DNA of 50,115 nt, filler included, from Candidatus Zhuqueibacterota bacterium (lineage in GTDB: Bacteria; BS750m-G25), in assembly GCA_016783505.1 (NCBI GenBank). It is 4 parts of 4 records of this genome, joined end to end, with 100 filler letters (N's around TTAATTAATTAA, not from the genome) between each part and the next. Parts side by side here need not be neighbours in the genome. Positions count along the whole stretch, not along the records: positions 1 to 12,796 come from JADHWK010000064.1; 3 more parts are not named here. One strand, 5' to 3'. The position numbers and the translations under genes were made by a program. Below are positions 1 to 38,110 of the stretch, piece by piece. How positions within the stretch are numbered: the first letter of the stretch is position 1; each line of letters opens with the position of its first letter. The notes under the pieces are model-generated. The model made no database searches and was not told where the DNA came from. It saw nothing but the letters and a program-made list of their open reading frames with translations.

Positions 1-112
1 TTTCCATCTCTATCTGAAAGAAATCGAGTGGAGATTCAATCACAGAGATGAAAACTTGCTAAAAATCTTAAGAAAATACTTGAATCAGCCAGTTATCAAA
101 GAACAATTTTAG
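1..112 (+). mobile_element. 3' end of IS1595-family (ISXO2-like) transposase, partial
   Basis: Frame 2 reads FHLYLKEIEWRFNHRDENLLKILRKYLNQPVIKEQF*. The YLKExxxRFNHR motif is typical of IS1595 transposase C-termini. Truncated by the window edge. Confidence 0.65.
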
Positions 113-277
113 TGCAACTTTAGTGGTCAATTACCAAATTTATTACTCATATTCAACTACCCCTTTATCCATTTATCCATCTATCCATGTCTTTTTTTAT
201 TCCCCCTGTCTCCCTTGTCCCCCTTTTTCCCCCTGTTCCACTTGTGACAAGTTTAGTTACTACTTGACATCTTTCTG

Positions 278-1516
278 TCAACACTGTTTCAATTTTTCCC
301 ACAGAAGGTAAAACACCGCTTGGGCTGTCTGTGCCTTATGGGTAAGGCGATCGTTCCGGAAGATGAACTTTCTATAATCCGACCCATCTTTATCCGCATA
401 TCCGATATAAACCAACCCTACGGGTTTTTCCGGGGTCCCTCCCGAAGGACCGGCGATGCCGGTGGCAGAGACCCCGACGTCCGCTCCGGCTTTGTCCCGA
501 ACTCCAGCGGCCATGGCCCGGGCCACTTCCGCTGACACGGCCCCATGATCCTGAATCATTCTCTCCGGGACATCCAGAAGTTCCGTCTTAGCCCGGTTAG
601 AATAGGCCACCACCCCCCGCTCGAAATAATCCGAAGAGCCGGGAACGTCGGTGAACCGGTTAGCGATCAGCCCCCCGGTGCAGGATTCCGCCACAGCGAT
701 TTTCAACCCCTTCTCTCGCAGGGCTCGACCAACGACTGCCTCGATGGTTTCCCCATCGGTGCCCCAGATGTATTTTCCTATGCGGGAACGAAGCCAGTCC
801 TCCGCCTTCCCGACCCTTAGTCGGCATTCACCCTCGTCTATCCCCTGGGCGGTGATGCGGATGTCCACCCCAGCGGGATCGGGCAGAAAGGCAATCCCCA
901 CCGTCTCTTCAATTTCTTTTAAGGGGCCCAGCCGCTCGAACAGGGCTGATTCGGAAATCCCCGATGTCCTCAGGGTCCGAAAGGCCATTTGAACACGGAC
1001 CCCTTTTCCCTTAAGCTGGGGAATAACCCCCTGTTGCAACATCGCCTTCATCTCCAAGGGAACCCCGGGGAGGGCGAAAAAGAGCTTACCGTTCCTCTCA
1101 AACCGGATACCCGGGGCGGTTCCGTAGTGGTTATCAATGGGCTGAGCCCCATCAGGGAAGAGCGCCTGCTCCCGGTTAATAGCGGGCATCCCCAACCTCC
1201 GGTGTTTAAAACGACCCCTGATCTGGTCAAATAGATCTTCTCTGAAAGTAAGCCTGGTCTGAAAAAACCGGGTCAGGACCGGTTTAGTACGGTCGTCGTG
1301 GGTGGGACCCAACCCCCCGGTGGCGATGACCACATCAGCCCGATCCCAGGCTGTTTTAAAAGCCGTTTCTATAGAAGTCTCCTCATCCCCAACGGTGGTA
1401 AGCCATCGGGGCAAAACCCCGATCCGCACCAACCTGTCGGCAATATAGGCAGCGTTGGAATCCAACAACTGCCCCATCAAGATCTCATCTCCGATGGTGA
1501 TGATCTCGGCAATCAT
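278..1516 (-). CDS. cinA: Competence/damage-inducible protein CinA (MoCF-like domain + PncC NMN deamidase domain)
   Basis: IGDEILMG, TGGLGPTHDD, AESCTGG and SATGIAGPSGGT motifs. ATG at 1516 chosen; TTG at 1525 is the alternative. Confidence 0.95.
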   Translation of the reverse strand: MIAEIITIGDEILMGQLLDSNAAYIADRLVRIGVLPRWLTTVGDEETSIETAFKTAWDRADVVIATGGLGPTHDDRTKPVLTRFFQTRLTFREDLFDQIRGRFKHRRLGMPAINREQALFPDGAQPIDNHYGTAPGIRFERNGKLFFALPGVPLEMKAMLQQGVIPQLKGKGVRVQMAFRTLRTSGISESALFERLGPLKEIEETVGIAFLPDPAGVDIRITAQGIDEGECRLRVGKAEDWLRSRIGKYIWGTDGETIEAVVGRALREKGLKIAVAESCTGGLIANRFTDVPGSSDYFERGVVAYSNRAKTELLDVPERMIQDHGAVSAEVARAMAAGVRDKAGADVGVSATGIAGPSGGTPEKPVGLVYIGYADKDGSDYRKFIFRNDRLTHKAQTAQAVFYLLWEKLKQC

Positions 1517-1561
1517 CAAGTTCAATCATTTATTTTAGGAACGCACTTAGCCCTAATGCTA

Positions 1562-2002
1562 CTAACCCAAGATCAGCAAAATCAACCATAAAATTAGATT
1601 GGTATAAATTCCCGCCCCCACGTCATCCAGCATCACCCCCCAGCCCCGGGGCAGGCGCTCAAGCCTTTTTAAGGGAAAGGGCTTGACGATGTCCAGCACC
1701 CGAAAGAGCAAAAATCCCGCACCGAACAACCAAACCTTAGGCGGGATCAGGAAAAGGGCTATCCCCATACCGGTGAACTCGTCAATAACAATCCGGCGAT
1801 CGTCCGTACAGGACCATTTTTCGAATTCAGTAGCGGAAAAAACCCCGATAAAAAACAGGAGCAGTAATACTAGAAAAAATGTCCTTACACTGGCGAAGGG
1901 AAAGAGCCACAGCATTACCGCCGCCACCAGGCTCCCCGCCGTGCCCGGCGCTACGGGAAAGTAGCCTACACCAAAGAGGGTAGCAATCCATTTACTGAAC
2001 AT
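1562..2002 (-). CDS. pgpA: Phosphatidylglycerophosphatase A
   Basis: APGTAGS, IVIDE, FRVLDIVKPFP and GVMLDD motifs; adjacent to pgsA. Confidence 0.93.
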   Translation of the reverse strand: MFSKWIATLFGVGYFPVAPGTAGSLVAAVMLWLFPFASVRTFFLVLLLLFFIGVFSATEFEKWSCTDDRRIVIDEFTGMGIALFLIPPKVWLFGAGFLLFRVLDIVKPFPLKRLERLPRGWGVMLDDVGAGIYTNLILWLILLILG

Positions 2003-2057
2003 AACCCAAAGGGCAATTTCTTAGCTCTTCCTTAGAAATTCCGAAATGTTCAAATAT

Positions 2058-2651
2058 TTATAGTGCCTTGGCCCCCAATTTTACATGGGCTTTCAAGTAC
2101 TGGGCGGCCGAAATCACTGCCAAAGTCATAGCCAAAAAGACAAAAATTTCTATGAGGTAATCAAAATTTGACAGGGTCAAAAAAGAGAAGTTGACCTTAA
2201 GATCTTTTACCACATTCAGATAAACCAAAGCGAAGATAATGGAAAACAGCTGGATGACCGTTTTCCACTTGGCCAACAGCGAAGTAGCAATGGACCGCTC
2301 CCGATGGATTGCATATAACCGTAAACCTGTGATAAGGATTTCCCGGACGGCAATAACGATGACCAGCCATAACAGTATTGGGCTTTTTATACGAATAACC
2401 AAAAGGAAGAAGGCTGACAGGGCAAGGCATTTATCGGCTAACGGGTCGGCAAAGCGGCCGAACTTGGATACCTCTTTCCTCTTCCGAGCGTAGTAACCGT
2501 CGAATAGGTCGGTGAACGCCGCCACGATAAAAACAAAGGTGGCCAGCACCCTCAAATAGGGATTCCCCGAAAAAAAGAGGAAAATGAACAGGGGAACCAG
2601 GGCAAAGCGAAGAAGGGTCAGCACATTGGGTATGTTTAATATCACCATCAT
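2058..2651 (-). CDS. pgsA: CDP-diacylglycerol--glycerol-3-phosphate 3-phosphatidyltransferase
   Basis: NIPNVLTLLR and the CDP-alcohol phosphotransferase motif TDLFDGYYAR...FGRFADPLADK. Confidence 0.93.
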   Translation of the reverse strand: MMVILNIPNVLTLLRFALVPLFIFLFFSGNPYLRVLATFVFIVAAFTDLFDGYYARKRKEVSKFGRFADPLADKCLALSAFFLLVIRIKSPILLWLVIVIAVREILITGLRLYAIHRERSIATSLLAKWKTVIQLFSIIFALVYLNVVKDLKVNFSFLTLSNFDYLIEIFVFLAMTLAVISAAQYLKAHVKLGAKAL

Positions 2652-2664
2652 TATAGTATTTTAT

Positions 2665-3252
2665 TCACATTTCAACGCGATCTTCCAGGGCCCGGGCCAG
2701 GGTGACCGTATCGGTAAACTCCAGATCACCCCCTACTGAAATCCCCCTGGCGAGCCGGGTGATCTTAACCCCCTTTGCCGTCGCCAGCTTGGAAAGGTAA
2801 AGGGAGGTGGTATCCCCATCGGCGGTGGGATTTAAGGCCAGGATAACCTCCTGGACGACGCCGTCCAGGCGGGATAGTAATTCTTTGACCTTTAGATCAT
2901 CAGGACCGACCCCATCCAAGGGGGAAAGGACCCCCCCGAGCACATGATAAACCCCCTCATAACCCCCGGTTCTCTCCACCGCCTCCAGGTCTTCTGAATC
3001 CTCCACCACACAGACGGTGGTTTGGTCCCGTTTTGGGTTGCGACAGATGGAACAGGGGTCACTATCACTGATGGCAAAGCAGACGTTGCAATACCGCACC
3101 TTATCCTTGATGTTAAGCAACGCCTGGGCCAGGGCGGCCACCTCCTCCCGGGGCTTCTTCAACAGGTGGAAGGTAAGCCGCTGGGCGGTACGCCGCCCTA
3201 TTCCGGGAAGCTTGGAAAACTCAAACACCAACTGTTCTAAGGATTCGGTCAC
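2665..3252 (-). CDS. recR: Recombination mediator RecR
   Basis: HhH LPGIGRRTAQR, C4 zinc finger (CNVC...CSIC), TOPRIM YHVLGGVLSPLDG. Confidence 0.97.
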   Translation of the reverse strand: MTESLEQLVFEFSKLPGIGRRTAQRLTFHLLKKPREEVAALAQALLNIKDKVRYCNVCFAISDSDPCSICRNPKRDQTTVCVVEDSEDLEAVERTGGYEGVYHVLGGVLSPLDGVGPDDLKVKELLSRLDGVVQEVILALNPTADGDTTSLYLSKLATAKGVKITRLARGISVGGDLEFTDTVTLARALEDRVEM

Positions 3253-3455
3253 CCGCAGCCTCTAGCCGTCTATATAAGCAGAGATTTTGAAATTTAGGCC
3301 AAGTTTTTGTAGTAAAATAAAAATCTGATGCTTTAAAATCCGAAATACGATCCCGAACCTTCGGGACGAAACAGCCCAAAGCTGAGTTGCTTTGGTCATC
3401 GGTCAGGGGGGCGAAGCTTCGCTAGATCAAAACGAAACTACTGGGTTAGGGATCT

Positions 3456-3797
3456 TTAAGTTAACCCGGGAAATTTGATACCCCCGGTCAATCCTCCCAG
3501 CAGACCGCCGGTGGCGGAACTGATCTGCTCATTGGCCGCCTCCTGGGCCTTTTCCAGCCCCTGGTTGACGGCGGCCATGACAAGGTCTTCCAGCATCTCC
3601 GTATCCTGGGGGTCTACCACTTCCGGGGCAATGACAAGGCCCACCAGTTCCTGTTTACCATTTACACGCACCGTTACCATCCCCCCGCCAGCGGACCCTT
3701 CTACCACAATGTTCTCCAGTTCTTCCTGGGCCTTAAGAATTTTTTCCTGTATCTTCTGGGCCTGTTTTAAAAGGCCGGTTAAATTACCCTTGGTCAT
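3456..3797 (-). CDS. ybaB: YbaB/EbfC family nucleoid-associated protein
   Basis: LKQAQKIQE...[10 protein letters not shown]...[14 protein letters not shown]; canonical dnaX-ybaB-recR order; AGGAG RBS before ATG 3797. Confidence 0.93.
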
Positions 3798-3812
3798 TTT
3801 CACTCCTGCTTT

Positions 3813-4040
3813 TCATAATTTTACATCCTCGGTATACTGTTCTATTTCAGAAATGGCATCAAGTATATGTTGAAGTCTTGCTTTATCCCCGATATTACTT
3901 CTCATAAATCAATTCTTTTTCTTTGTCAATAATTGACGAATAAACTTTGAAACCGCTTTTTCTTAAAGTAGGTCCACTTTTCTGTTGAGTAAATCTTGTG
4001 ATTCTAATTTCATTTTGACGAATTCTAAACTAATCGGTTT
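3813..4040 (-). pseudogene. Degraded MNT (nucleotidyltransferase) / HEPN (DUF86, HepT-like) toxin-antitoxin pair
   Basis: 3905-3813 reads MRSNIGDKARLQHILDAISEIEQYTEDVKL* (DUF86-like N-terminus). Upstream reads KPISLEFVKMKLESQDLLNRKVDLL*EKAVSKFIR//IDKEKELIYE (MNT C-terminus with a stop and a frameshift). Confidence 0.7.
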
Positions 4041-4142
4041 AGGCTCTTAAAACAGGTTTGTCCTTGAAGTATCTTTTAATTTTTGAAATGTAACTTGTGT
4101 TCAAATTCATTTTAGTTAAATCCATTCTAGGTCATTTAGAAA

Positions 4143-5807
4143 TTACTCAACCAGTTCCCCTTTAAAAATCTCCATAATGTCCCCGATGATGGGCTCTTTC
4201 TGTTTTAAGCCTTCCAGCCATTTCTTTTTATCATCCCCCATCCTCGATTTGGCGGCGGGGCTTTTTACCATCTCCCCTACCACAAACTCAACTGACCATC
4301 TCTCGCCTAAGACCTTTTCCACCGCCCCAGCAATGAGGTCCCGTTCCTTCCTCAGTCGACCGATCTGAAATCCATTCCCCTGGGAAAGGGTAACCGTTAG
4401 TTTGCCTTCCTTTAAGGCAGTGGGCTCCCCCAGGACAAGAAAGACACCCAGGCTTTTTTTCCTTTCCCCCACTTCTGCAACCACCTTATTCCAAGAATCC
4501 TTAACTTTCTCTAATTTTTCCTGATCGTTCGCCCCGATAGAAGGGACCACAACAGCGACCGCCTGTTCCTCCCCCCTTTTAAGCAAACCTTCGGGAGAAG
4601 AAGCTTTTTCTCTTATCTTTTTTTTCGGGGATAAATCCTCTTTCACGCCCATGGAACAGGGCTGATCCTCCCCTGTTTTGAGCCCGACCAAACGCTCGAT
4701 CACCCCTTCAATCTGGACGCTTTCTTCTAGCTTGATCATCTTCAGAAAGGCCAGTTCGAAGGCCAGCCTCCAGTGGGGGTTTCGCCGCAGCCCCACTTCG
4801 GCGTCGGCGACGATCTTAATCAGCCGTAGCAGATCGTTCTCCTGATAAGAGGAACCTTCCTTCAGGTATCTATCTTTGTTCTCCGGGGTTGCTTCCACCA
4901 ACTCGGCGTTTCCCAGGGCTCGGGTCAAAAGCAGGTTGCGGAAATGCTCGCCCAGGCCGATCAAAAATTCCTGGGGGTCGTATCCCTGCCGGACGACCCC
5001 ATCAATCAGGGAGAGACACCCCCCCATATCCCTGGCCCTTATCCGATCGGAAACCTGAAAGAAAAGGTCCTGGGGAATAATCCCCAGCGTGTTGACTACG
5101 TCCTCTAAGCTCACCTTGTTTCCCCCGAAGGATACCATTTGATCCAGCAGTGACTGGGCGTCACGCAGGCTACCGTCGGCCTTGCGGGCCATGATCCGCA
5201 AACATTCATCGTCAACCTCTATCTGCTCCTGGGCGGCGATCTGTCGCAAGTTCTCGATCATGTCATCAATGGAAATGCGGTGAAAGTCAAACCTCTGGCA
5301 GCGGGAGAGGATGGTGGCCGGCACCCGATGGGGCTCGGTGGTAGCGAAGATGAAAACGGTGTGCCCCGGGGGTTCCTCCAGGGTCTTGAGCAGGGCGTTG
5401 AAGGCCTCCTTGGTGAGCATATGCACTTCGTCAATGATGTAAATTTTATACCGCCCCCCTACCGGCGCATACTTGATGTTCTCCCTCAGGTTGCGCACCT
5501 CATCGATCCCTCGGTTGGAAGCCCCATCAATCTCCAACACATCCAGGCTCCGGCCCTCGGTTATCTCTTTGCATCGGGTGCACTGGTTGCACGGTTCCGG
5601 AGTCACCCCCTGGGCACAGTTCAAGGCCTTGGCCAGGATGCGAGCGGTGGTGGTCTTCCCTATCCCCCGGGGCCCGGTGAAGATGTAAGCATGGGAGATG
5701 CGACTGGACTTAATGGCATTTTTAAGGGTCAGGGAGATATGTCCCTGCCCCACGATCTTTTCAAACACCTGAGGCCGCCACTTCCGGGCCATCACTAAAT
5801 AAGACAT
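4143..5807 (-). CDS. dnaX: DNA polymerase III subunit gamma/tau
   Basis: ARKWRPQ, Walker A GPRGIGKT, IIDEVHML, SRC motif, zinc cysteines. Confidence 0.98.
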   Translation of the reverse strand: MSYLVMARKWRPQVFEKIVGQGHISLTLKNAIKSSRISHAYIFTGPRGIGKTTTARILAKALNCAQGVTPEPCNQCTRCKEITEGRSLDVLEIDGASNRGIDEVRNLRENIKYAPVGGRYKIYIIDEVHMLTKEAFNALLKTLEEPPGHTVFIFATTEPHRVPATILSRCQRFDFHRISIDDMIENLRQIAAQEQIEVDDECLRIMARKADGSLRDAQSLLDQMVSFGGNKVSLEDVVNTLGIIPQDLFFQVSDRIRARDMGGCLSLIDGVVRQGYDPQEFLIGLGEHFRNLLLTRALGNAELVEATPENKDRYLKEGSSYQENDLLRLIKIVADAEVGLRRNPHWRLAFELAFLKMIKLEESVQIEGVIERLVGLKTGEDQPCSMGVKEDLSPKKKIREKASSPEGLLKRGEEQAVAVVVPSIGANDQEKLEKVKDSWNKVVAEVGERKKSLGVFLVLGEPTALKEGKLTVTLSQGNGFQIGRLRKERDLIAGAVEKVLGERWSVEFVVGEMVKSPAAKSRMGDDKKKWLEGLKQKEPIIGDIMEIFKGELVE

Positions 5808-5980
5808 GTTACGACCTATGTAAAATGATCAAAATTTATAAATCACAAGCTCCAATTCCCAAATTACAAACAAATCCTATCCCGAAGATTGGGGAACCAA
5901 ATGTTCAAAACCAACATCGTTTTGATCATCCATACGGATGATCCGTAGGAGGCTACGCTCCCAGGGGAATTTGGTGCTTC

Positions 5981-6039
5981 GGTCAGGTTAGTCAGGTCCG
6001 TCAGGCGCCGGACTGATGCCTAACTGACGCCCGACTGAT
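5981..6039. repeat. ~57-bp dispersed repeat with an inverted copy at 36074-36130
   Basis: GTCAGGTTAGTCAGGTCCGTCAGGCGCCGGACTGATGCCTAACTGACGCCCGACTGAT is the near-perfect reverse complement of 36074-36130. Shorter relatives at 15362-15384 and 36838-36852. Confidence 0.8.
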
Positions 6040-6101
6040 GTAATTTGGAATTTACTAACTTTAGTCCCGAACCTTCGGAAAAACAGGATGATGGTCAAAG
6101 G

Positions 6102-6377
6102 ACGGCTGTGCCCTACCTTCGTTCCTGTCTTACCCGACCTCCCCCACGATAGCCAGCTCCCGCCAAGCGTCCCCGGGGCAGCGGCCCAAAACGCCTACCG
6201 CTGCTACCTCCCGGTCCTGACGGGGTTTGGCGCTCCAGTCCGTCCCCGGGACTCGACGATCAACACCGCTTACCGGGAGGAACATCGGGGGACCCGGACC
6301 TCAGAGTAGGCCTTCGACCCTGCTATAGCGGATTGCAGGCTACAGGGCACCGCTAACTCCCCGTCTAGCACAGCCGT
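6102..6377 (-). ncRNA. ffs: Signal recognition particle RNA, long (Alu-containing) form
   Basis: Minus strand has the Alu domain GACGGGGAGTTAGCGGTGCCCTGTAGCCTGCAATCCGC and S-domain helix 8 CCCCGTCAGGACCGGGAGGTAGCAGC. Ends ACGGCTGTGC/GCACAGCCGT pair. Canonical position upstream of dnaX. Confidence 0.95.
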
Positions 6378-6452
6378 GGTGGAGCTGAGGGGATTTGAAC
6401 CCCTGACCTCTAGAGTGCGATTCTAGCGCTCTCCCATCTGAGCTACAGCCCC
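6377..6452 (-). tRNA. tRNA-Ala (anticodon CGC)
   Basis: GGGGCTGTAGCTCAGATGGGAGAGCGCTAGAATCGCACTCTAGAGGTCAGGGGTTCAAATCCCCTCAGCTCCACCA; G3:U70 pair; CCA encoded. Confidence 0.97.
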
Positions 6453-6523
6453 CGCGCGGTGTCTTTAAAACAAAGTTCGAACCTACCTGGTATAAAACAA
6501 TCTTTTAATAAATTCCTATTCTC

Positions 6524-6618
6524 GTATAATGTTCCCATCATAAAAGAAGTCCTGAGGGTAGCGAAGGATTTGGGTAAGTCCCGAAAAATCGGGGCGAACC
6601 TTTTATGCTGTGTTAGGC
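6524..6618 (-). repeat. attC-like site 3 (terminal, degenerate)
   Basis: Minus strand GCCTAAC-A-CAGCATAAAAG...CTTTTATGATG-GGAAC-ATTATAC. The conserved GTT reads ATT, and a CCCCGA-TTTT-TCGGGA palindrome sits in the loop. Confidence 0.75.
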
Positions 6619-6653
6619 GACAGTTTTGCGAGACGAATAACATCTTTTCAATT

Positions 6654-7670
6654 CTATTTTCTTTGACTCTCACTTTCTACACTTTTTACTTTCTCATTAT
6701 TTTTATGGGGTAGGTAGAATTCTCTTATTTCTTTGTCAAACTCAAGTGTATATTTCTCTTTATTGTAAAATAACGGAAAAGCATAAACTATCTGAGCCCT
6801 TGATGCATTGTTATTTTCCTCAAAAAATAAATATATCCCAACTGTCTGCATTTTTGTTCCGAGTGGTGCGATTGAGACCATAGAATCTTTGTATTTCTCA
6901 TCACGATACCATCTATTGAGCAAATCCTTTGTGCAAGCAGGATCCAGTGCTGAAACTTCTTCTACAACAGTATTAGGATGTTCCAAGATAGAACGGTTTG
7001 CTGAGCGTGATGGTAAATCAGCGCCGTGATAAGTAGGGGGATTGCCAATAACAGCTACTGTCAAATCGGGTTCAACATATTTCCAAATAGCATACGCCCG
7101 CTCACCCTCGTAACCAAGCAAAAGAATCAAGATATTTCTGTGAAGTTCTACACAGTCGAGATTGCCAAAATAAGGTAAATAAGTTATGTCTTTTATTCCC
7201 CAGGTTAAATTTTGTCTGACCATGTAGTATCCAGGAGTGTATAAAAGCCTTATCTTCGCATTCGGATAATTGGAACGCAGAAATCGAAGTAATAATAATA
7301 AATATTGTTTTGTAAAAGTTGAAATATCAACAGTAATTCGTTCTAATGAAGGATTTTTATGAGCAAGATCATGTAAGAATCGGGTAAATTTGGAAGAATC
7401 ATATTTATTGAAATACACAGGTTCTATTTCATGTGAAGGACTTTCTAAATAGGGTTTGAGTATTTCTTTTAATCTTAGTTGATGCTTATTTTTTAAGTTA
7501 TCTTCACCATAATACCTTACTAAAAGCATGTTGCGTGCCTTATATTCACTCTTTTTCAACCTAGCACTTACATTCAAACATCTTGGCTCAAAACTAACAC
7601 TCGCAATAAACAAATCGTCAGACTTTGAACTTTCGATGGGTCTAACTGTGCTTATCGGTATAACGCTCAT
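6654..7670 (-). CDS. Uncharacterised cassette protein, two Rossmann/CARF-like alpha-beta domains
   Basis: 338 aa with conserved-looking motifs SFEPRC, VDISTFTK, LGYEGER, IAPLGTK and QIVYAFP. Start overlaps the upstream stop (ATGA). AT-rich. Fold call is inference. Confidence 0.6.
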   Translation of the reverse strand: MSVIPISTVRPIESSKSDDLFIASVSFEPRCLNVSARLKKSEYKARNMLLVRYYGEDNLKNKHQLRLKEILKPYLESPSHEIEPVYFNKYDSSKFTRFLHDLAHKNPSLERITVDISTFTKQYLLLLLRFLRSNYPNAKIRLLYTPGYYMVRQNLTWGIKDITYLPYFGNLDCVELHRNILILLLGYEGERAYAIWKYVEPDLTVAVIGNPPTYHGADLPSRSANRSILEHPNTVVEEVSALDPACTKDLLNRWYRDEKYKDSMVSIAPLGTKMQTVGIYLFFEENNNASRAQIVYAFPLFYNKEKYTLEFDKEIREFYLPHKNNEKVKSVESESQRK

Positions 7671-8230
7671 TTTCTACTCCCTGATCTAAATTTAACCATA
7701 AAGTCTTCTAACGTATCCTCAATATTTTGTTCGTAAGTGTTTCTACGCCAAGCACAAGGGGAGGCGCTGTTCATTAATACAGGATTATCCCATAAATCAC
7801 CGTCATATGCATATATAACTGAAGACACATCTACAGCTTCAGATAATCCTAATTCTACCACATAATCTACCACTGCCTCTGTGCAATCAATAATCTTGAT
7901 AATGCAACTTTGTAGAGCAAAACACACTTGGCATGTCAAATCGTCCATTGGATAGTCCGACGAGGATATTTCAATTATATCATATTTATCTGATAGTAAA
8001 TTAATTAAAAAATCACATTGTTTCTTGTTTCTTGGTTGAAAAGCTATATATGCTTTCTCTATCCTTTGAGATATTTCGTTTTCATAATCGCAAGAAGATT
8101 TTTCTTTATCGAAAGGACATGACCAATGTTTTTTAAAAAAACTATAACCATGTTGGTGAATCGCATCCCTATACCATTCGTTAAAGGACATATTCTCAAA
8201 TTCAGGAGACGAAGGCTCCCACCTTTTCAC
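7667..8230 (-). CDS. C-terminal part of the frameshifted ATPase fusion (nucleoside deoxyribosyltransferase-like domains)
   Basis: This frame stays open upstream to the A10 run at 8369-8378, adding KRISTGVLFEIGLSLGYK. A second repeat reads IIDCTEAVVDYVVELGLSEA. Confidence 0.55.
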   Translation of the reverse strand: MKRWEPSSPEFENMSFNEWYRDAIHQHGYSFFKKHWSCPFDKEKSSCDYENEISQRIEKAYIAFQPRNKKQCDFLINLLSDKYDIIEISSSDYPMDDLTCQVCFALQSCIIKIIDCTEAVVDYVVELGLSEAVDVSSVIYAYDGDLWDNPVLMNSASPCAWRRNTYEQNIEDTLEDFMVKFRSGSRK

Positions 8231-8312
8231 ATCCCAATCTTTGAGGAGCTTAGGTAAACTTTTCTTTTCAAATTCTTCATAGCGGCAATCATTATAGAGA
8301 AAAAATGGACTT

Positions 8313-10304
8313 TTATAACCTAATGAAAGACCTATTTCGAAAAGAACGCCTGTAGAGATGCGTTTCTCTTTTTTTTTTCTGTTTACCTCTGCCTATTTCA
8401 TACTCAATAGGAGTTATATCATGTGTAGTGTAGATAGCTTTCTGGATAATCTTTGGTATATCAATAACAAAACGATGAAGGTCTCGTTTCCATAAATCTC
8501 GTGCTGTTATACATATGTCTTGTTCAACCAATCCAAGCAACCGGGGTCGATCTTTCATATCTTCTTTATGTATATCATTAACTGTACCTTTTAACAAATT
8601 ATTTCTTTCAATAACTTTTTGATCCTTCTTTATTGAAATCGAAATAAAAACAGGATGCTCTGGAAAGATTTTTTTCTGTCCATACTGTGAATCTGCATCT
8701 GGTTGATCGTTTATAGGAGAAAGCATATATTTAATAATTTTATCATTCATCAAAGGAAACTCTCCTTTATTTATCCAGCTAATGCCAAATCGTGGAGCAA
8801 ACAAAGGATTCAGCATACCATGTTCTGGAATATAATCCTTATTAGTATTTATGCTTATTAATTCCTCAGGACTGCATAAAAGAAACCGATTCAAAAAGCC
8901 TTTTCTTAATATTTTTTTAGCTGCCTCACTAATATTAAGAGGTATAGAAAATCTTGAACCTTCAAACGAATATGCTTCTATTCCTTTTTTTTCACAATCT
9001 TTGCCAAAGGAGAGAATAAATGATCTCACCTCACGGAATTCCTCCTCTGTCTCCACATTGACATCTTTATTAAAAGTTAGTGTTGCCAGAGACACAAAAG
9101 CATCAGCTTGTGATTTAGCCGAAATAAAACTAACCTCTTTCGCCTGCTTTTTACTCCGATTGATTTCATTGTCAATCGCTTTTTCACATAGGTTCAAAAA
9201 GGTCAGGATATTTCCTCCAGAAAGTTTAACTAACCTATCGAATCCATAATACAATTTTTGTCTCATATTTCGACTTGTGCCTTTTTCAAAAGTATGAAGT
9301 CGTCTAAGATTTTCACCAGGACTATTACCCTTGTCTATAATATGCTCTATTTTTTGTGGAAATTTTTCAGAAAACACTTCAGCCATATCTATTTCATCTT
9401 TTCCCTGAGGTGATAGTATCTTAATTGTAATTTTTCGAAGAAGTCTTTCATATTGAATATCATAAGGGTCATGGTCTAAAGATAAAATTCCTAAGTCTCT
9501 TGTAAGGTCAATTTTTCTACCCGAAACATCTGAACCAAAAGACTCTGGGAGATATCTTGCGGCGAATTTAACACATAGAGTCTCTTTTAAACTGTGATCT
9601 AAAAAAATATTTAAAACCTTACCTAATCCTTTCCAGTAGTCATATTTATCTACTAAGAGGCATAATCTCTGCTTTCCAATTTTGGTTAATAACTCATCAT
9701 TCATCCGTTCTATCGTAGAAATAAACATGTCCGAGTTAAGGACTCTCATATTTAATTGCTCAGAAAAATCTCTGATTAATCTATTATTTATGATGTTATT
9801 TCTAATTATACTTATTACTTTCTTAAGCCTTTCAATTAGACTATTTACATTAATATTTTCTATATTTAACATATATTCCTCATTGATAATATGAGGGAGA
9901 ATTTCTAACATTTTATAGTCATCATTTAAGAGATTATCCTTTAATTGTATAAGAAGTTCTAAAGCCGTTTTTACACTGAAAAAATGTTCAAAAGTGGCAA
10001 AGTCACTGTAGTCTTGGTATAATCGCACAAGATGTTTCAATTCGGGATTTTTAAAGCCTATATAAACTCCATAGAAAGACAAGTTTTCTAATCTATTTCT
10101 CTTTAATTGAACAGATAAAGAAAGTGCTTTTAAAACAGCAGACTTTCCGCTCCCTGTAGAGCCAATCAAAATACAGTGCCCTGGCTGTAAATATTTTTCA
10201 TAGTCTGGAGGCTCTGCAAATAATGAGTAAATTTCATTAAAATCAATATGTTCAGCGTTTTTCTCTCTCCTAAAAGGATTATCAATCAACTTAAATTTGA
10301 CCAT
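8313..10304 (-). CDS. P-loop ATPase (STAND / ORC-CDC6-like), N-terminal part of a frameshifted ~878-aa fusion
   Basis: N-terminal NPF motif, Walker A ILIGSTGSGKS, Walker B LCLLVDKYD, helical-domain motif LSGGNI. The last ~18 aa after the A10 run look out of frame. Confidence 0.7.
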   Translation of the reverse strand: MVKFKLIDNPFRREKNAEHIDFNEIYSLFAEPPDYEKYLQPGHCILIGSTGSGKSAVLKALSLSVQLKRNRLENLSFYGVYIGFKNPELKHLVRLYQDYSDFATFEHFFSVKTALELLIQLKDNLLNDDYKMLEILPHIINEEYMLNIENINVNSLIERLKKVISIIRNNIINNRLIRDFSEQLNMRVLNSDMFISTIERMNDELLTKIGKQRLCLLVDKYDYWKGLGKVLNIFLDHSLKETLCVKFAARYLPESFGSDVSGRKIDLTRDLGILSLDHDPYDIQYERLLRKITIKILSPQGKDEIDMAEVFSEKFPQKIEHIIDKGNSPGENLRRLHTFEKGTSRNMRQKLYYGFDRLVKLSGGNILTFLNLCEKAIDNEINRSKKQAKEVSFISAKSQADAFVSLATLTFNKDVNVETEEEFREVRSFILSFGKDCEKKGIEAYSFEGSRFSIPLNISEAAKKILRKGFLNRFLLCSPEELISINTNKDYIPEHGMLNPLFAPRFGISWINKGEFPLMNDKIIKYMLSPINDQPDADSQYGQKKIFPEHPVFISISIKKDQKVIERNNLLKGTVNDIHKEDMKDRPRLLGLVEQDICITARDLWKRDLHRFVIDIPKIIQKAIYTTHDITPIEYEIGRGKQKKKRETHLYRRSFRNRSFIRL

Positions 10305-10371
10305 TTCCTATCACCTATTGTTTTTGACTCTTTAATCAATTTTTGCTGGTGCAAAAGTCTCGCAAAATGTC

Positions 10372-10442
10372 GCCTAACGGTACCAGCATATACGACGTTT
10401 TGTGATAGCAAAATGTCCCGAAGCGTATATGCTGTGTTATCT
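10372..10442 (-). repeat. attC-like site 2
   Basis: Minus strand AGATAAC-A-CAGCATATACG...CGTATATGCTG-GTACC-GTTAGGC, with 11-bp perfect arms. Confidence 0.85.
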
Positions 10443-10458
10443 GCCGTTATAATAAATA

Positions 10459-11118
10459 TCAGTTGAATAAAGACCAAATAACACTTGCTAACAAAGAGGA
10501 TAGAATACCAGCTATAAAACCTATTACTATTTTCTTATTTTTATACCACCAAGTAGAAATTATAATTGCTTCCTTAATTTCACCTGCAATATTCTTCGCA
10601 TTCTCTTTGAACGCTTTATCATATGCTTCATTAATGGGCAAACTTTCGTCTTTTTCTTCAGGATCAGGTTTCTTCATTATTTTGGTTGCTTTGGTTTTAA
10701 GAATGTGAATTGCATCATCAAGTGTTCCTTTACGTGTGAAAAATAAATATGGAATAGATTTAAAATTTTGACCAATGACATATGCTAGCGTAATTCCGCC
10801 ATTAGATGATTGATTAAGCTTGGCAAGAACTGTTCGAAATTTTGTTTGCGCTTTTAGATATAATTTTCTTTCAACGTGTAATTTTTGTAATTGCTCCTCA
10901 GTTGGCCGAGAATCCATCGGATAGTATAAATCTAATACAAAAATGTCAGGCCTTTTTCTTCCCTGCTTTTTTAAATCATCTAATGCCTCAGGATAAGTTG
11001 TTCCAGCGCCAATGATAAAACCATTCTCAAGTTTATCCTTGTCAAGGTTATTCTTGAAGCGCTTAATTTCATCTTGGTCGTCATCAATAAAGCAAATTGC
11101 ATATTCTTTTTGATACAT
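10459..11118 (-). CDS. Cassette protein: receiver (REC)-like domain with C-terminal transmembrane helix
   Basis: ICFIDDD, FVLDLYYP, FFTRKG and KKP receiver-like motifs; hydrophobic tail IVIGFIAGILSSLLASVIW. Confidence 0.65.
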   Translation of the reverse strand: MYQKEYAICFIDDDQDEIKRFKNNLDKDKLENGFIIGAGTTYPEALDDLKKQGRKRPDIFVLDLYYPMDSRPTEEQLQKLHVERKLYLKAQTKFRTVLAKLNQSSNGGITLAYVIGQNFKSIPYLFFTRKGTLDDAIHILKTKATKIMKKPDPEEKDESLPINEAYDKAFKENAKNIAGEIKEAIIISTWWYKNKKIVIGFIAGILSSLLASVIWSLFN

Positions 11119-11156
11119 TTAATCACCCATTCGTAGAGTTCGTATTAGGTAATGGC

Positions 11157-11294
11157 AGATAACGGTTGGCCGGTATACGAAGTGCGTACCTTAACGAAAT
11201 CTAAGTTAATAAATATGGTTGGGTTTTCAGTGTCTGTCAAGTATGTTTGAGAAGTAGTGGAGAAGCAAGCATTTTGTATACCGGCTTGTTGTGT
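11157..11294 (-). repeat. attC-like site 1
   Basis: Minus strand ACACAAC-AA-GCCGGTATAC...GTATACCGGC-CAACC-GTTATCT; begins a few bases after the stop of 11299..11802. Confidence 0.85.
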
Positions 11295-11298
11295 GCCG

Positions 11299-11802
11299 TT
11301 AATTACCTCTAAAACCAAATTTATGTAATTTTTCAAATTCTCCATTCTTATTTTTCTCTATAGATCTGGCTAAAAATTCTTTTGAACGTTGAAACTGTTT
11401 ATTGAATATTACCATGAATTCGCTACTATCAAGATCTTTTTCTTCAATACTATTTTTTTCAAGGTAAACCCTAATTGTAGTGTGTAATTGTAAATAGAAT
11501 TGGTCAATTAGCGATTCTTGATTAGGTTTCCATGAGATTTTCCACTTTTTGTGATGAGTTTGGTAGAATAGTAACTCTTCTGCAGTAATAATTGATGAAA
11601 GAAGACCTGATACTTTGTCATTCCTCCGCGGTGGCTTGCTCAGGTTAACCGGGTCTAAGTTATTATTACATTCTTTTGCTTTATCTGCTAGCTGACTATT
11701 AAGAAGACTTACTCTTTGATATCTTAATGCTCTAACTGCAACAAATAAAGAGATCATAGCAACAATAAGCGCGAAAATTGATGTTATTAAGCTGTAATTC
11801 AT
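11299..11802 (-). CDS. Cassette hypothetical protein with N-terminal TM helix
   Basis: 167-aa ORF filling cassette 1; AAAGGA RBS-like sequence upstream; hydrophobic N-terminus. Confidence 0.65.
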   Translation of the reverse strand: MNYSLITSIFALIVAMISLFVAVRALRYQRVSLLNSQLADKAKECNNNLDPVNLSKPPRRNDKVSGLLSSIITAEELLFYQTHHKKWKISWKPNQESLIDQFYLQLHTTIRVYLEKNSIEEKDLDSSEFMVIFNKQFQRSKEFLARSIEKNKNGEFEKLHKFGFRGN

Positions 11803-11838
11803 ATTAAAAAATTATGCAATTCCTTTAAATTTATTAAT

Positions 11839-11880
11839 GGCACACAACTTGTTCATATCCGAACTAGGTTCGGATATACC
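11839..11880 (-). promoter_or_regulatory. attI-like primary recombination site with internal hairpin
   Basis: Minus strand ATATCCGAAC-CTA-GTTCGGATAT-GAACAA-G|TTGTGTGCC. GTTGTGTGCC is exactly complementary to GGCACACAAC at the far end of cassette 1. Confidence 0.65.
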
Positions 11881-11900
11881 TTCCTCTAGCCGAATCGTTT

Positions 11901-12341
11901 TTAAGATTTTCCTCCTCTCTTACGAATGCTCAAACTATCCAGCGGGCTCCTAATTCTTCCAATGCTCTGTTTGCTAACATGGGTATATATTTCGGTTGTC
12001 TTACTACTCTTATGCCCCATCCCGAAATTTCGGGACTGAATATACCGGAGGTCAGTCCCGCTTTCTAATAGGTGTGTCGCAAAACTATGTCTAAGACTGT
12101 GTACCGAAACCTGTTTTTGAGTTCCTGCTATCCGGCATGCTTTTGTGAAAATCTTCTCAACCGTTCGCGATGTTATATGTTTGTCCTTGTTCTGTCCTGG
12201 AAACAACCACTTCTTTGGTCTGTATTCCTTCCAGTATCCCCTTAGAATACCCAATGATCTCTCGGAAAGAATGGTATATCTATCCTTCCTCCCTTTAGTA
12301 TCCCTAATGTGAATAAACATCCTTTTGCTGTCAATATGTTC
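11901..12341 (-). pseudogene. 5'-truncated tyrosine recombinase (integron-integrase-like)
   Basis: [21 protein letters not shown]...[37 protein letters not shown]. Box I Arg and the N-terminal domain are absent. Canonical ELL is replaced by SRNFGM. Confidence 0.85.
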
Positions 12342-12554
12342 TTTTCGGTTCTGGATTGTACATTACGCTCTCTTCCCTTCCATACCGAAAACGGCACCAC
12401 CTTTTCAAAGTACGAATCCCCGCCGTGGACATAGTCGCCCTCCTCTTCAACGAAGCGGTGATCAGCGGTAACAACAACCTTAAATTCCGACCCGACTCGC
12501 CGAACCCAGCATTCATGAGTATTAGAGAAATCCTTTCTACTCTGCCGTCCGCCG

Positions 12555-12791
12555 TCATCCATGAGAATTAATTTCGTACAACTCAGCAGTAAACTTGCCT
12601 GATGGCTTGACTCTTCCATTTAAGATATTCTCTACAATTTTTGCTGATGACAAAGGCATTGATTCTTGCCCACACTCTGGACATACATACATAACCAAGT
12701 CCGAAATAACAATAGGCTCGCCGTTACGAAGGAATATCTTTTCTTCTTTTCTTTCCTCCATTGGGAATGGACAGCCATTTGGACACTGCAT
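12555..12791 (-). CDS. YgiT/MqsA-type zinc-finger protein
   Basis: MQCPNGC...VISDLVMYVCPECGQE pattern, 78 aa; any partner gene would lie beyond the contig end. Confidence 0.7.
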   Translation of the reverse strand: MQCPNGCPFPMEERKEEKIFLRNGEPIVISDLVMYVCPECGQESMPLSSAKIVENILNGRVKPSGKFTAELYEINSHG

Positions 12792-12796
12792 AATAA

Positions 12797-12896
12797 NNNN
12801 NNNNNNNNNNNNNNNNNNNNNNNNNNNNNNNNNNNNNNNNTTAATTAATTAANNNNNNNNNNNNNNNNNNNNNNNNNNNNNNNNNNNNNNNNNNNN
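12797..12896. other. Assembly gap / artificial contig linker
   Basis: N-run with embedded TTAATTAATTAA (stop codons in all six frames). Confidence 0.98.
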
Positions 12897-25657: not shown

Positions 25658-25757
25658 NNNNNNNNNNNNNNNNNNNNNNNNNNNNNNNNNNNNNNNNNNN
25701 NTTAATTAATTAANNNNNNNNNNNNNNNNNNNNNNNNNNNNNNNNNNNNNNNNNNNN
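25658..25757. other. Assembly gap / artificial contig linker
   Basis: N-run with TTAATTAATTAA. Confidence 0.98.
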
Positions 25758-38010: not shown

Positions 38011-38110
38011 NNNNNNNNNNNNNNNNNNNNNNNNNNNNNNNNNNNNNNNNNNNNTTAATTAATTAANNNNNNNNNNNNNNNNNNNNNNNNNNNNNNNNNN
38101 NNNNNNNNNN
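38011..38110. other. Assembly gap / artificial contig linker
   Basis: N-run with TTAATTAATTAA. Confidence 0.98.

Follow-up and report, generated by a model that had tools for sequence, protein, structure and literature searches.

The window analysed here is a stretch of 50,115 nucleotides from assembly GCA_016783505.1 of a Candidatus Zhuqueibacterota bacterium. Within it, a block on the minus strand reads, in order, a tyrosine recombinase remnant, 52 nt containing a palindrome, and three cassettes (6522-11848) that each run from a GTT to a hairpin. A preliminary description, made from the sequence without database searches, had called this locus a non-canonical, integron-like cassette array with a co-oriented recombinase that lacks the segment specific to the integron integrase (IntI). 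The block is probably a decayed member of a widespread integron-like family, apparently undescribed before, in which a recombinase without the insert bearing helix I2 lies upstream of its own array. The features of the block are as follows.

11901..12347, minus strand: recombinase remnant, the C-terminal 148 codons, with an in-frame TAA before them
11849..11900, minus strand: attI-like junction, with one perfect palindrome of 10-bp arms (11855-11877), 6 nt, and G|TT at 11848/11847
11163..11847, minus strand: cassette 1, with an open reading frame (ORF) at 11299-11802 (167 aa, no family match) and attC-like site 1
11154-11297, minus strand: attC-like site 1, 144 nt
10378..11162, minus strand: cassette 2, with an ORF at 10459-11118 (219 aa, sub-threshold receiver-domain match) and attC-like site 2
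10369-10445, minus strand: attC-like site 2, 77 nt
6530..10377, minus strand: cassette 3, with three genes and attC-like site 3
8313-10304, minus strand: ORC/CDC6-like P-loop ATPase of cassette 3 (Pfam PF24389, 1.7e-43)
7667-8230, minus strand: 187-aa protein of cassette 3 without an assigned family
6654-7670, minus strand: CARF6-type protein of cassette 3 (PADLOC CARF6, 1.5e-35)
6522-6621, minus strand: attC-like site 3, in which the last core is ATT (6528-6530) and is GTT in relatives

The core pairs of the three cassettes are exact 10-mers. In cassette 1, GGCACACAAC (11839-11848) pairs with GTTGTGTGCC (11288-11297). In cassette 2, GGCAGATAAC (11154-11163) pairs with GTTATCTGCC (10436-10445), and in cassette 3, GTCGCCTAAC (10369-10378) pairs with GTTAGGCGAC (6612-6621). 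The GTT and AAC cores are chained as circular-cassette insertion predicts. The preliminary description of three GTT cores complementary to their own far ends is therefore correct, and with it the cassette limits at 11163-11847, 10378-11162 and 6530-10377. The cassettes are AT-rich, as had been noted, with a G+C content of 0.31-0.35 within the block versus 0.47-0.54 outside, and every ORF of the block is on the minus strand. Two additions to that description are needed: the recombinase is present only as a remnant, and the last core is ATT rather than GTT. The three-gene set of cassette 3 (6654-10304) is probably an anti-phage defence module carried as a single cassette. When seven window proteins were searched by tblastn against all fetched loci, no cassette genes in common were found.

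In the window, an imperfect hairpin comes after each inner core and extends to the next GTT, and the DNA folds of the three hairpins have z values of -4.18, -6.14 (site 2) and -1.56. The covariance model R1 rests on 19 similarly long sites of other loci and on no site of the window. This set (A5) was used as the MAFFT alignments of heterogeneous sites (A1 and A2) were too ragged for a model. On the minus strand of the window, R1 matches 6522-6620 (58.9 bits, E 3.3e-13) and 10370-10444 (46.6 bits, E 5.4e-10). Over the 50-kb window at E<0.1, R1 finds nothing beyond the array sites except the reverse strand of the second site. The L-stem words of window sites 2 and 3 are common to sites in four related loci (L067, L069, L071 and L073).

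Arrays of this kind recur beside related recombinases. The relatives comprise 127 loci, 47 from species genomes and 80 from metagenomes. A closed cassette was defined as 9 nt ending in AAC that exactly reverse-complement a GTT 9-mer no more than 6 kb upstream, and 428 kb downstream and 470 kb upstream of recombinases were scanned. Downstream of the recombinases there are 51 closed cassettes in 31 loci on the recombinase strand and three in two loci on the opposite strand. Upstream there are nine in six loci on the same strand and two in one locus on the opposite strand. At E<=0.01, R1 has 37 matches in the 80 metagenome loci, all on the recombinase strand, 19 of which are the training sites. 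The other 18 are new, with 16 downstream and two just upstream of the gene. In 20 loci the distance from the stop codon to the first cassette is 8-125 nt; in the window it is 52 nt. L003 and L004, whose enzymes of 386-388 aa are 57-60% identical, have three cassettes each with perfectly chained cores. The predicted cargo of L003 (3121-6124) consists of an aminoglycoside-2''-adenylyltransferase-family protein (1.3e-28), a ThsB-TIR-like protein (2.1e-19) and a pterin-binding DHPS-type protein (1.7e-59).

These scans bear on whether the hairpins are terminators or genome-wide repeats with core matches due to chance. At least three 10-nt closures arise in 23 of 1000 mononucleotide shuffles (mean 0.62 per shuffle), and the sites lie at the 3' ends of ORFs, where terminators are expected. 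The three closures taken alone are only modestly unusual; what is decisive is their context, with the hairpins and the R1 matches. The R1 matches in the window are confined to the array, the site family recurs after related recombinases in unrelated metagenomes and always on the recombinase strand, and the cores are chained from site to site. The terminator or repeat explanation is very improbable and is effectively refuted by the quadrant counts, the R1 scan of the window and the R1 scan of the metagenome loci.

The geometry of the sites differs from that of canonical attC sites. The site scanner looked for a pattern bounded by AAC and GTT, with 0-4 nt after AAC, a stem of at least 8-9 bp with its loop and partner, and 3-7 nt before GTT. 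In the 51 closure-defined sites, the left spacer is 1-3 nt in 44 and the right spacer is 4-6 nt in 48. The spacers of the window sites are (2,5), (1,5) and (1,5). Ten canonical sites measured by the same rule gave (7,7) five times, (9,8), (9,9), and (3,3) three times. These are ten of 12 canonical sites, the remaining two, from locus L060 of host genome G002, being read by eye only as core, 5 nt, inner box, and then inner box, 5-6 nt, core. Sites of class 1 and Kovacikia arrays, also read by eye, have the same canonical layout. Symmetric spacers of (3,3) or (4,4) were allowed by the scanner, and none occur among the 51 closure-defined sites. The sites of the window and its relatives have the outer cores of attC (...AAC/GTT..., with the start complementary to the far end, and ATT as the last core of the window) and do not have its symmetric unpaired central spacers. 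R1 has no match in the canonical integron loci L060, L144 and L145, and it finds no site in the tRNA-Ala locus of genome G001, in L001, or in the flanks of the canonical IntIs of G001. In a proxy attC alignment of the 12 canonical sites (A6), the inner boxes did not line up.

The recombinase had been described as lying upstream of the array in the same orientation, and the remnant does lie on the same strand, ending 52 nt upstream of the first cassette. It corresponds to residues ~176-320 of a 325-aa relative and to positions 47-171 of 172 of the Pfam Phage_integrase profile. In tblastn with a full-length relative (P0004) as query, residues 170-320 correspond to 12377-11916, no part of the window matches the N-terminal ~175 residues, and no second recombinase is found in the window. 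Among the NCBIfam models, XerA_Arch aligns with the remnant through the insert region (105 bits), and the integron-integrase model TIGR02249 aligns only after the insert (positions 231-315; 97 bits).

The family to which the remnant belongs is very large, with at least 8000 matches of 260-430 aa, and its members are often named XerD or 'site-specific tyrosine recombinase/integron integrase', the latter being the name of the XerA_Arch model itself. Five full-length relatives score 217-241 bits on TIGR02249 (L004, 240.8), below its cut-off of 265 bits, and match it in two pieces with positions ~179-239 skipped. On XerA_Arch (NF040815) they score 230-245 bits (L004, 230.3), above its cut-off of 220 bits. 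On XerC/D they score about 180-197 bits (L004, about 188). Among solved structures in the PDB, P0004 matches IntI4 of Vibrio cholerae best by sequence (2a3v, E 6.9e-43), and query residues 49-212 align with chain residues 10-175 and query residues 234-315 with chain residues 239-320. Between these two segments P0004 has 21 residues and IntI4 has 63, a gap of ~42 residues. The missing IntI segment of the preliminary description is therefore seen both in this gap and in the TIGR02249 match split around the insert. The AlphaFold model (predicted local distance difference test score, pLDDT, 85.8) has 2a3v as its top Foldseek match (E 1.6e-17), with XerA next. As 2a3v is the top match and the insert region is short, the enzyme is IntI-like without the I2-bearing insert.

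In all-against-all blastn comparisons, related platforms are alike through the gene and attI, and homology is lost at the G|TT junction. L067 and L069 are 91% identical up to 6134/1662, where the first cassette starts at 6124/1652. L099 and L100 are 96% identical up to 10018/1156, with the cassette start at 10015, and L002 and L003 are alike up to 3003, with the cassette start at 2999. L142 and L143 have the first cassette in common and diverge at 11684, beside a core at 11677. These loci show the integron feature of a conserved integrase and attI platform from whose crossover point onward the cassettes differ. The expectation that homologues would carry variable arrays is thus borne out, by closed cassettes in 31 of the 127 loci and by homology that ends at G|TT.

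The same comparisons weigh on whether the array is an ordinary set of clustered attC sites without an integron integrase (CALIN), served by a canonical IntI elsewhere in the genome, with the insert-less neighbour incidental. Canonical IntI above the TIGR02249 cut-off is present in three of nine host genomes (G001, with two copies, G002 and G004) at 381-462 bits, continuous over model positions 1-315. CALINs without a nearby intI are also common, 95% of them being without a recognisable intI pseudogene according to the available part of Cury 2016 (PMC4889954). Against this explanation, the spacing and orientation of recombinase and array recur from locus to locus, closed cassettes are about tenfold enriched in the downstream, same-strand quadrant, and homology stops at G|TT directly after the recombinase gene. 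The other six hosts (G003 and the Bacteroidota G005-G009, which are array carriers) have no canonical IntI above the cut-off. G002, an Edwardsbacteria metagenome-assembled genome (MAG), has a canonical, insert-bearing IntI with its own classical divergent array (L060, 9418-11450), in which two cassettes have textbook, symmetric attC sites unlike those described here. An incidental neighbour is unlikely on this evidence. One of the two L060 cassettes is cupin-like by eye, and as G002 also holds an insert-less recombinase, the two kinds occur together in this genome.

Two further loci concern the mobility of the platform. L066 contains two tandem recombinase genes, in the regions 6063-7560 and 10041-11470. 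Each repeat unit (a TTGACT..TATAAT promoter-like pair, the gene and attI) begins exactly at the final GTT of an attC-like site (6063-6155 and 10041-10132). In L071 (region 1363-1990) a site lies directly upstream of the recombinase gene. IS1111-attC elements and group IIC-attC introns insert into existing recombination sites, and the recombinase with its palindromes could likewise be a selfish unit that inserts into such sites and builds no array. The tandem genes of L066, each starting with its promoter at a site-ending GTT, the position of the site in L071, and the nine closed cassettes upstream on the same strand all agree with this. It leaves unexplained the downstream arrays in 31 loci and the change of content at the junction after the palindromes, and as an alternative to array building it is improbable. 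It is compatible with an integron-like family, because a cassette-like platform could still capture cassettes, and the platform itself may behave as a cassette in L066 and L071.

The limits of the attI-like junction come from the fold of 11835-11905 and from related loci, whose sequence past the stop codon was compared with that of the window. Most close relatives have two palindromes ~13 nt apart, followed by GAAC-(A/G)-A-G|TT, as judged by eye and uncounted. The palindrome arms vary by lineage and stay self-complementary (CCGAAC/GTTCGG, GACGAC/GTCGTC and CGCAAT/ATTGCG types). The single palindrome of the window resembles a fusion of the first palindrome's left half with the second one's right half. 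As relatives have two palindromes, the window appears to have lost one. The N-terminal ~175 residues of the recombinase, one palindrome and the GTT of the last core are all missing, and the window array is therefore most likely a fossil with its three cassettes frozen.

In a quick IQ-TREE phylogeny of 122 rows with SH-aLRT support, the clade of the six canonical IntIs (support 99) has no insert-less row in it. This placement of insert-less rows outside the IntI clade agrees with the earlier proposal of a distinct system. A split with support 95 separates every insert-less row from the IntIs and the hosts' Xer-like genes. The recombinases linked to IS91-type transposases form one clade of 23 rows without arrays (support 99). 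Array-linked rows are scattered over all remaining insert-less clades, and the window remnant falls in a 30-row clade (support 100) that holds seven of them.

Many members have an N-terminal domain of ~70 residues, with a beta-beta-alpha-beta-beta-alpha-beta order and a pLDDT of ~90. Its hidden Markov model matches 18 of 26 assessable array-linked rows, none of 15 assessable IS91-linked rows and none of 16 assessable IntI/Xer references. Its VIA neighbours are T4 UvsW-N (Z 7.7 and 7.4) and the XPB N-terminus (Z 6.7 and 6.1); the XPB match at Z 6.7 has a root-mean-square deviation of 1.8 over 55 residues. The HARP domain of SMARCAL1 gives Z 4.1 and a Foldseek probability of 0.93. All of these Z values are in the range that VIA calls common. 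In the Foldseek search, nothing is below E 0.04, and Pfam HARP matches four of the 18 domain-bearing members below threshold. UvsW, XPB and HARP domains come from proteins that act on branched DNA. The likeness of the modelled domain to HARP, XPB and UvsW-N is a lead and not a finding. The domain is not essential, as eight array-linked enzymes are without it.

Several observations weigh against an integron-like family with its own insert-less recombinase. No strict site is present in 41 of the 89 loci with at least 1 kb downstream (48 have one or more), and a stricter closure test classed 44 of the 127 loci as 'none'. The R1 match at site 1 of the window (11155-11296) is weak (13.5 bits, E 0.27). 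The scanner needed a stem and spacers of 0-4 and 3-7 nt, and pairing and part of the geometry are therefore partly selected in the spacer counts above. The L stem itself speaks for pairing kept by structure and not by sequence, with compensatory changes on both sides in 10 of 11 pairs and 92.9% of cells paired versus 29-41% with a slid partner, but this test is partly circular, as a stem was required when the sites were selected. The backbone of the quick tree is without a resolved order and gives no sister relation to IntI; it therefore does not tell an ancestral absence of I2 from a loss. All nine host genomes are MAGs, which makes the absence of IntI only suggestive, and the full-length canonical IntIs of G001, G002 and G004 could act in trans. 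No recombination event was seen in public-run contigs, where the joints had sides of 20-34 letters; the low-trust joints are 6615/12569, 10453/11150, 11862/12273 and 7998/11427. With these points considered, the distinct integron-like system of the preliminary description is supported by relatives that lie outside the IntI clade and carry their own variable arrays; the recombination itself we infer.

The family resembles integrons in several respects. A tyrosine recombinase adjoins attI, cassettes lie at G|TT, and each cassette ends in an imperfect inverted repeat that has an inner stem and ...AAC/GTT... outer cores. The platform is conserved and its cassettes vary, the cargo includes genes of defence and resistance families, and IntI4 is the nearest solved structure. 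Unlike integrons, the family of the window is missing the insert of ~40 residues with helix I2, has an asymmetric bulge (about 1 nt/5 nt) in place of symmetric unpaired spacers, has palindromes in attI, and in most array-linked members has the extra N-terminal domain of ~70 aa. The system is integron-like yet does not have two defining features, the IntI insert and the canonical site geometry. Co-orientation of intI with the cassettes is found in the spirochaete group of integrons. In archaeal integrons, according to the part of Ghaly 2022 (PMC9668308) that was available, attI is immediately downstream of intI and the IntIs have the additional domain.

Other known systems share part of this layout. 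With three attC-like sites and no insert-bearing IntI nearby, the window formally qualifies as a CALIN, defined by at least two attC sites, but differs in the cognate-looking recombinase remnant and attI directly upstream, a layout that intact relatives keep. The Xer recombinases (XerA, XerC and XerD, acting at dif) share the two-domain fold, and full-length relatives exceed the XerA_Arch cut-off. Unlike Xer genes, the insert-less genes are not single-copy housekeeping genes, lie beside arrays, score higher on IntI4 than on XerA/XerD, and are apart from the hosts' own Xer-like genes in the tree. The same search also returned the IS91-linked recombinases (45-53% identity), which are likewise without the insert, but a transposase-like ORF follows each of them where the window has cassettes. 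In this sister clade (L009-L012, L021-L045, L118 and L138), which we take to belong upstream of IS91-family transposases, an ORF with IS91-type transposase motifs is directly downstream. The IS91-linked rows have no closed cassettes, and no N-terminal domain is present in the 15 that were assessable.

The anatomy of intact members, and the mechanism proposed for them, are as follows. An intact member has an insert-less tyrosine recombinase, the closest relative of integron integrases, directly upstream of its array on the same strand. Past the stop codon comes a short attI, in which two palindromes usually precede a conserved G|TT, and cassettes would be inserted there successively. Each cassette ends in an attC-like imperfect hairpin composed of an R box (...AAC/GTT...), an asymmetric bulge (1-3 nt in one arm, 4-6 nt in the opposite one), and a long L stem. 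The insert-less recombinase, rather than a canonical IntI, would move the cassettes, and the sites would act as folded single strands. The bulge, together with the HARP/XPB-like N-terminal domain in most members, may replace the reading of extrahelical bases by I2 in IntI. It is possible, and proposed here only tentatively, that a large, phylum-spanning sister group of IntI captures cassettes through folded hairpin sites without helix I2, by reading the asymmetric bulge, aided perhaps in most members by the N-terminal domain and carried on a platform (promoter, recombinase and attI) that has crossover points at its ends and is itself mobile as a cassette.

According to the available part of Escudero et al. 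2020 (PMC7790495), cassette capture needs I2, which also confers single-strand recombination, and a 'lack of intermediates' hampers reconstruction of the origin of IntI. If the present proposal is true, the insert-less group would represent either those 'missing intermediates' or a solution reached independently as integrons arose, and an abundant I2-less clade with its own arrays would make the question of I2 necessity and IntI origin directly testable. Integron surveys pick integrases by the additional domain, as stated in the available parts of Nemergut 2008 (PMC2426708), Cury 2016 (PMC4889954) and Neron 2022 (PMC9024848), and arrays like these would therefore be filed as orphan CALINs. The family may then account for part of the unexpected abundance of CALINs. 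It would also enlarge the known reservoir of mobile cassettes, with a cargo that includes the CARF/ATPase set, ThsB-TIR, aminoglycoside-2''-adenylyltransferase-family and DHPS-type proteins. In the full-text literature, subscription journals and supplements excluded, no paper was found that links insert-less recombinases with cassette arrays.

Four contigs, each about 12-12.8 kb long, make up the window. They are connected by N-runs around a TTAATTAATTAA linker, and adjacency across the joins is therefore meaningless. Contig 1 spans 1-12796, and the array block is placed between the tRNA-Ala and signal recognition particle (SRP) RNA genes and the end of this contig. At the Rfam gathering thresholds, only the SRP RNA and tRNA are found in the window. 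The joins and the features around the block are as follows.

12797-12896, 25658-25757 and 38011-38110: N-run joins
6377..6452, minus strand: tRNA-Ala(CGC), chromosomal flank on the far side of the array
6106-6373: SRP RNA, beside the tRNA-Ala
12555-12791, minus strand: YgiT-type zinc-finger (MqsA-like antitoxin) ORF upstream of the remnant (NCBIfam TIGR03831, 1.2e-4)
12242-12619, minus strand: ORF of no assigned family that overlaps the YgiT-type ORF

The YgiT/MqsA-type ORF and the ORF that overlaps it (12242-12791) stand in the place of the missing 5' half of the recombinase gene. They may form a toxin-antitoxin pair, such as are common in integron arrays. The R1 scan of 12242-12791 found no attC-like site upstream of the remnant.

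Contigs of two public runs from two studies (X1 and X4) carry a letter-identical copy of the locus, and a further run (X7) has short contigs that cover only the remnant and the upstream part. The SRP RNA and tRNA are the sole matches between G001 and the window (70-77% identity), and G001 is not a close relative. L001, from a Neomarinimicrobiota MAG, has a 79%-identical recombinase remnant at a contig end with the same small palindromic insertion.

In L016 (Chitinophagales), the array (4911-8217, minus strand) is divergent from an insert-less recombinase (9332-10399, plus strand), which is the layout of classical integrons. One of its core pairs, GTTAGCGGT/ACCGCTAAC, is identical to one in L004. 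In three Bacteroidota loci (L013, L014 and L015), the gene after the recombinase begins, by eye, like a single-stranded-DNA-binding protein. This neighbour is suggestive, and it fits a system thought to use folded single strands.

The small palindrome CCCGAAATTTCGGG and its close variants occur in four places. In the window, one copy lies within the recombinase remnant (12021-12034), where it adds three residues relative to intact relatives, and another lies in the loop of site 3 (6577-6593). A third is in the same place in the remnant of L001 (~10213-10226), and a fourth is in the attI region of L104 (~1231-1252). It looks like a tiny mobile or recurrent hairpin.

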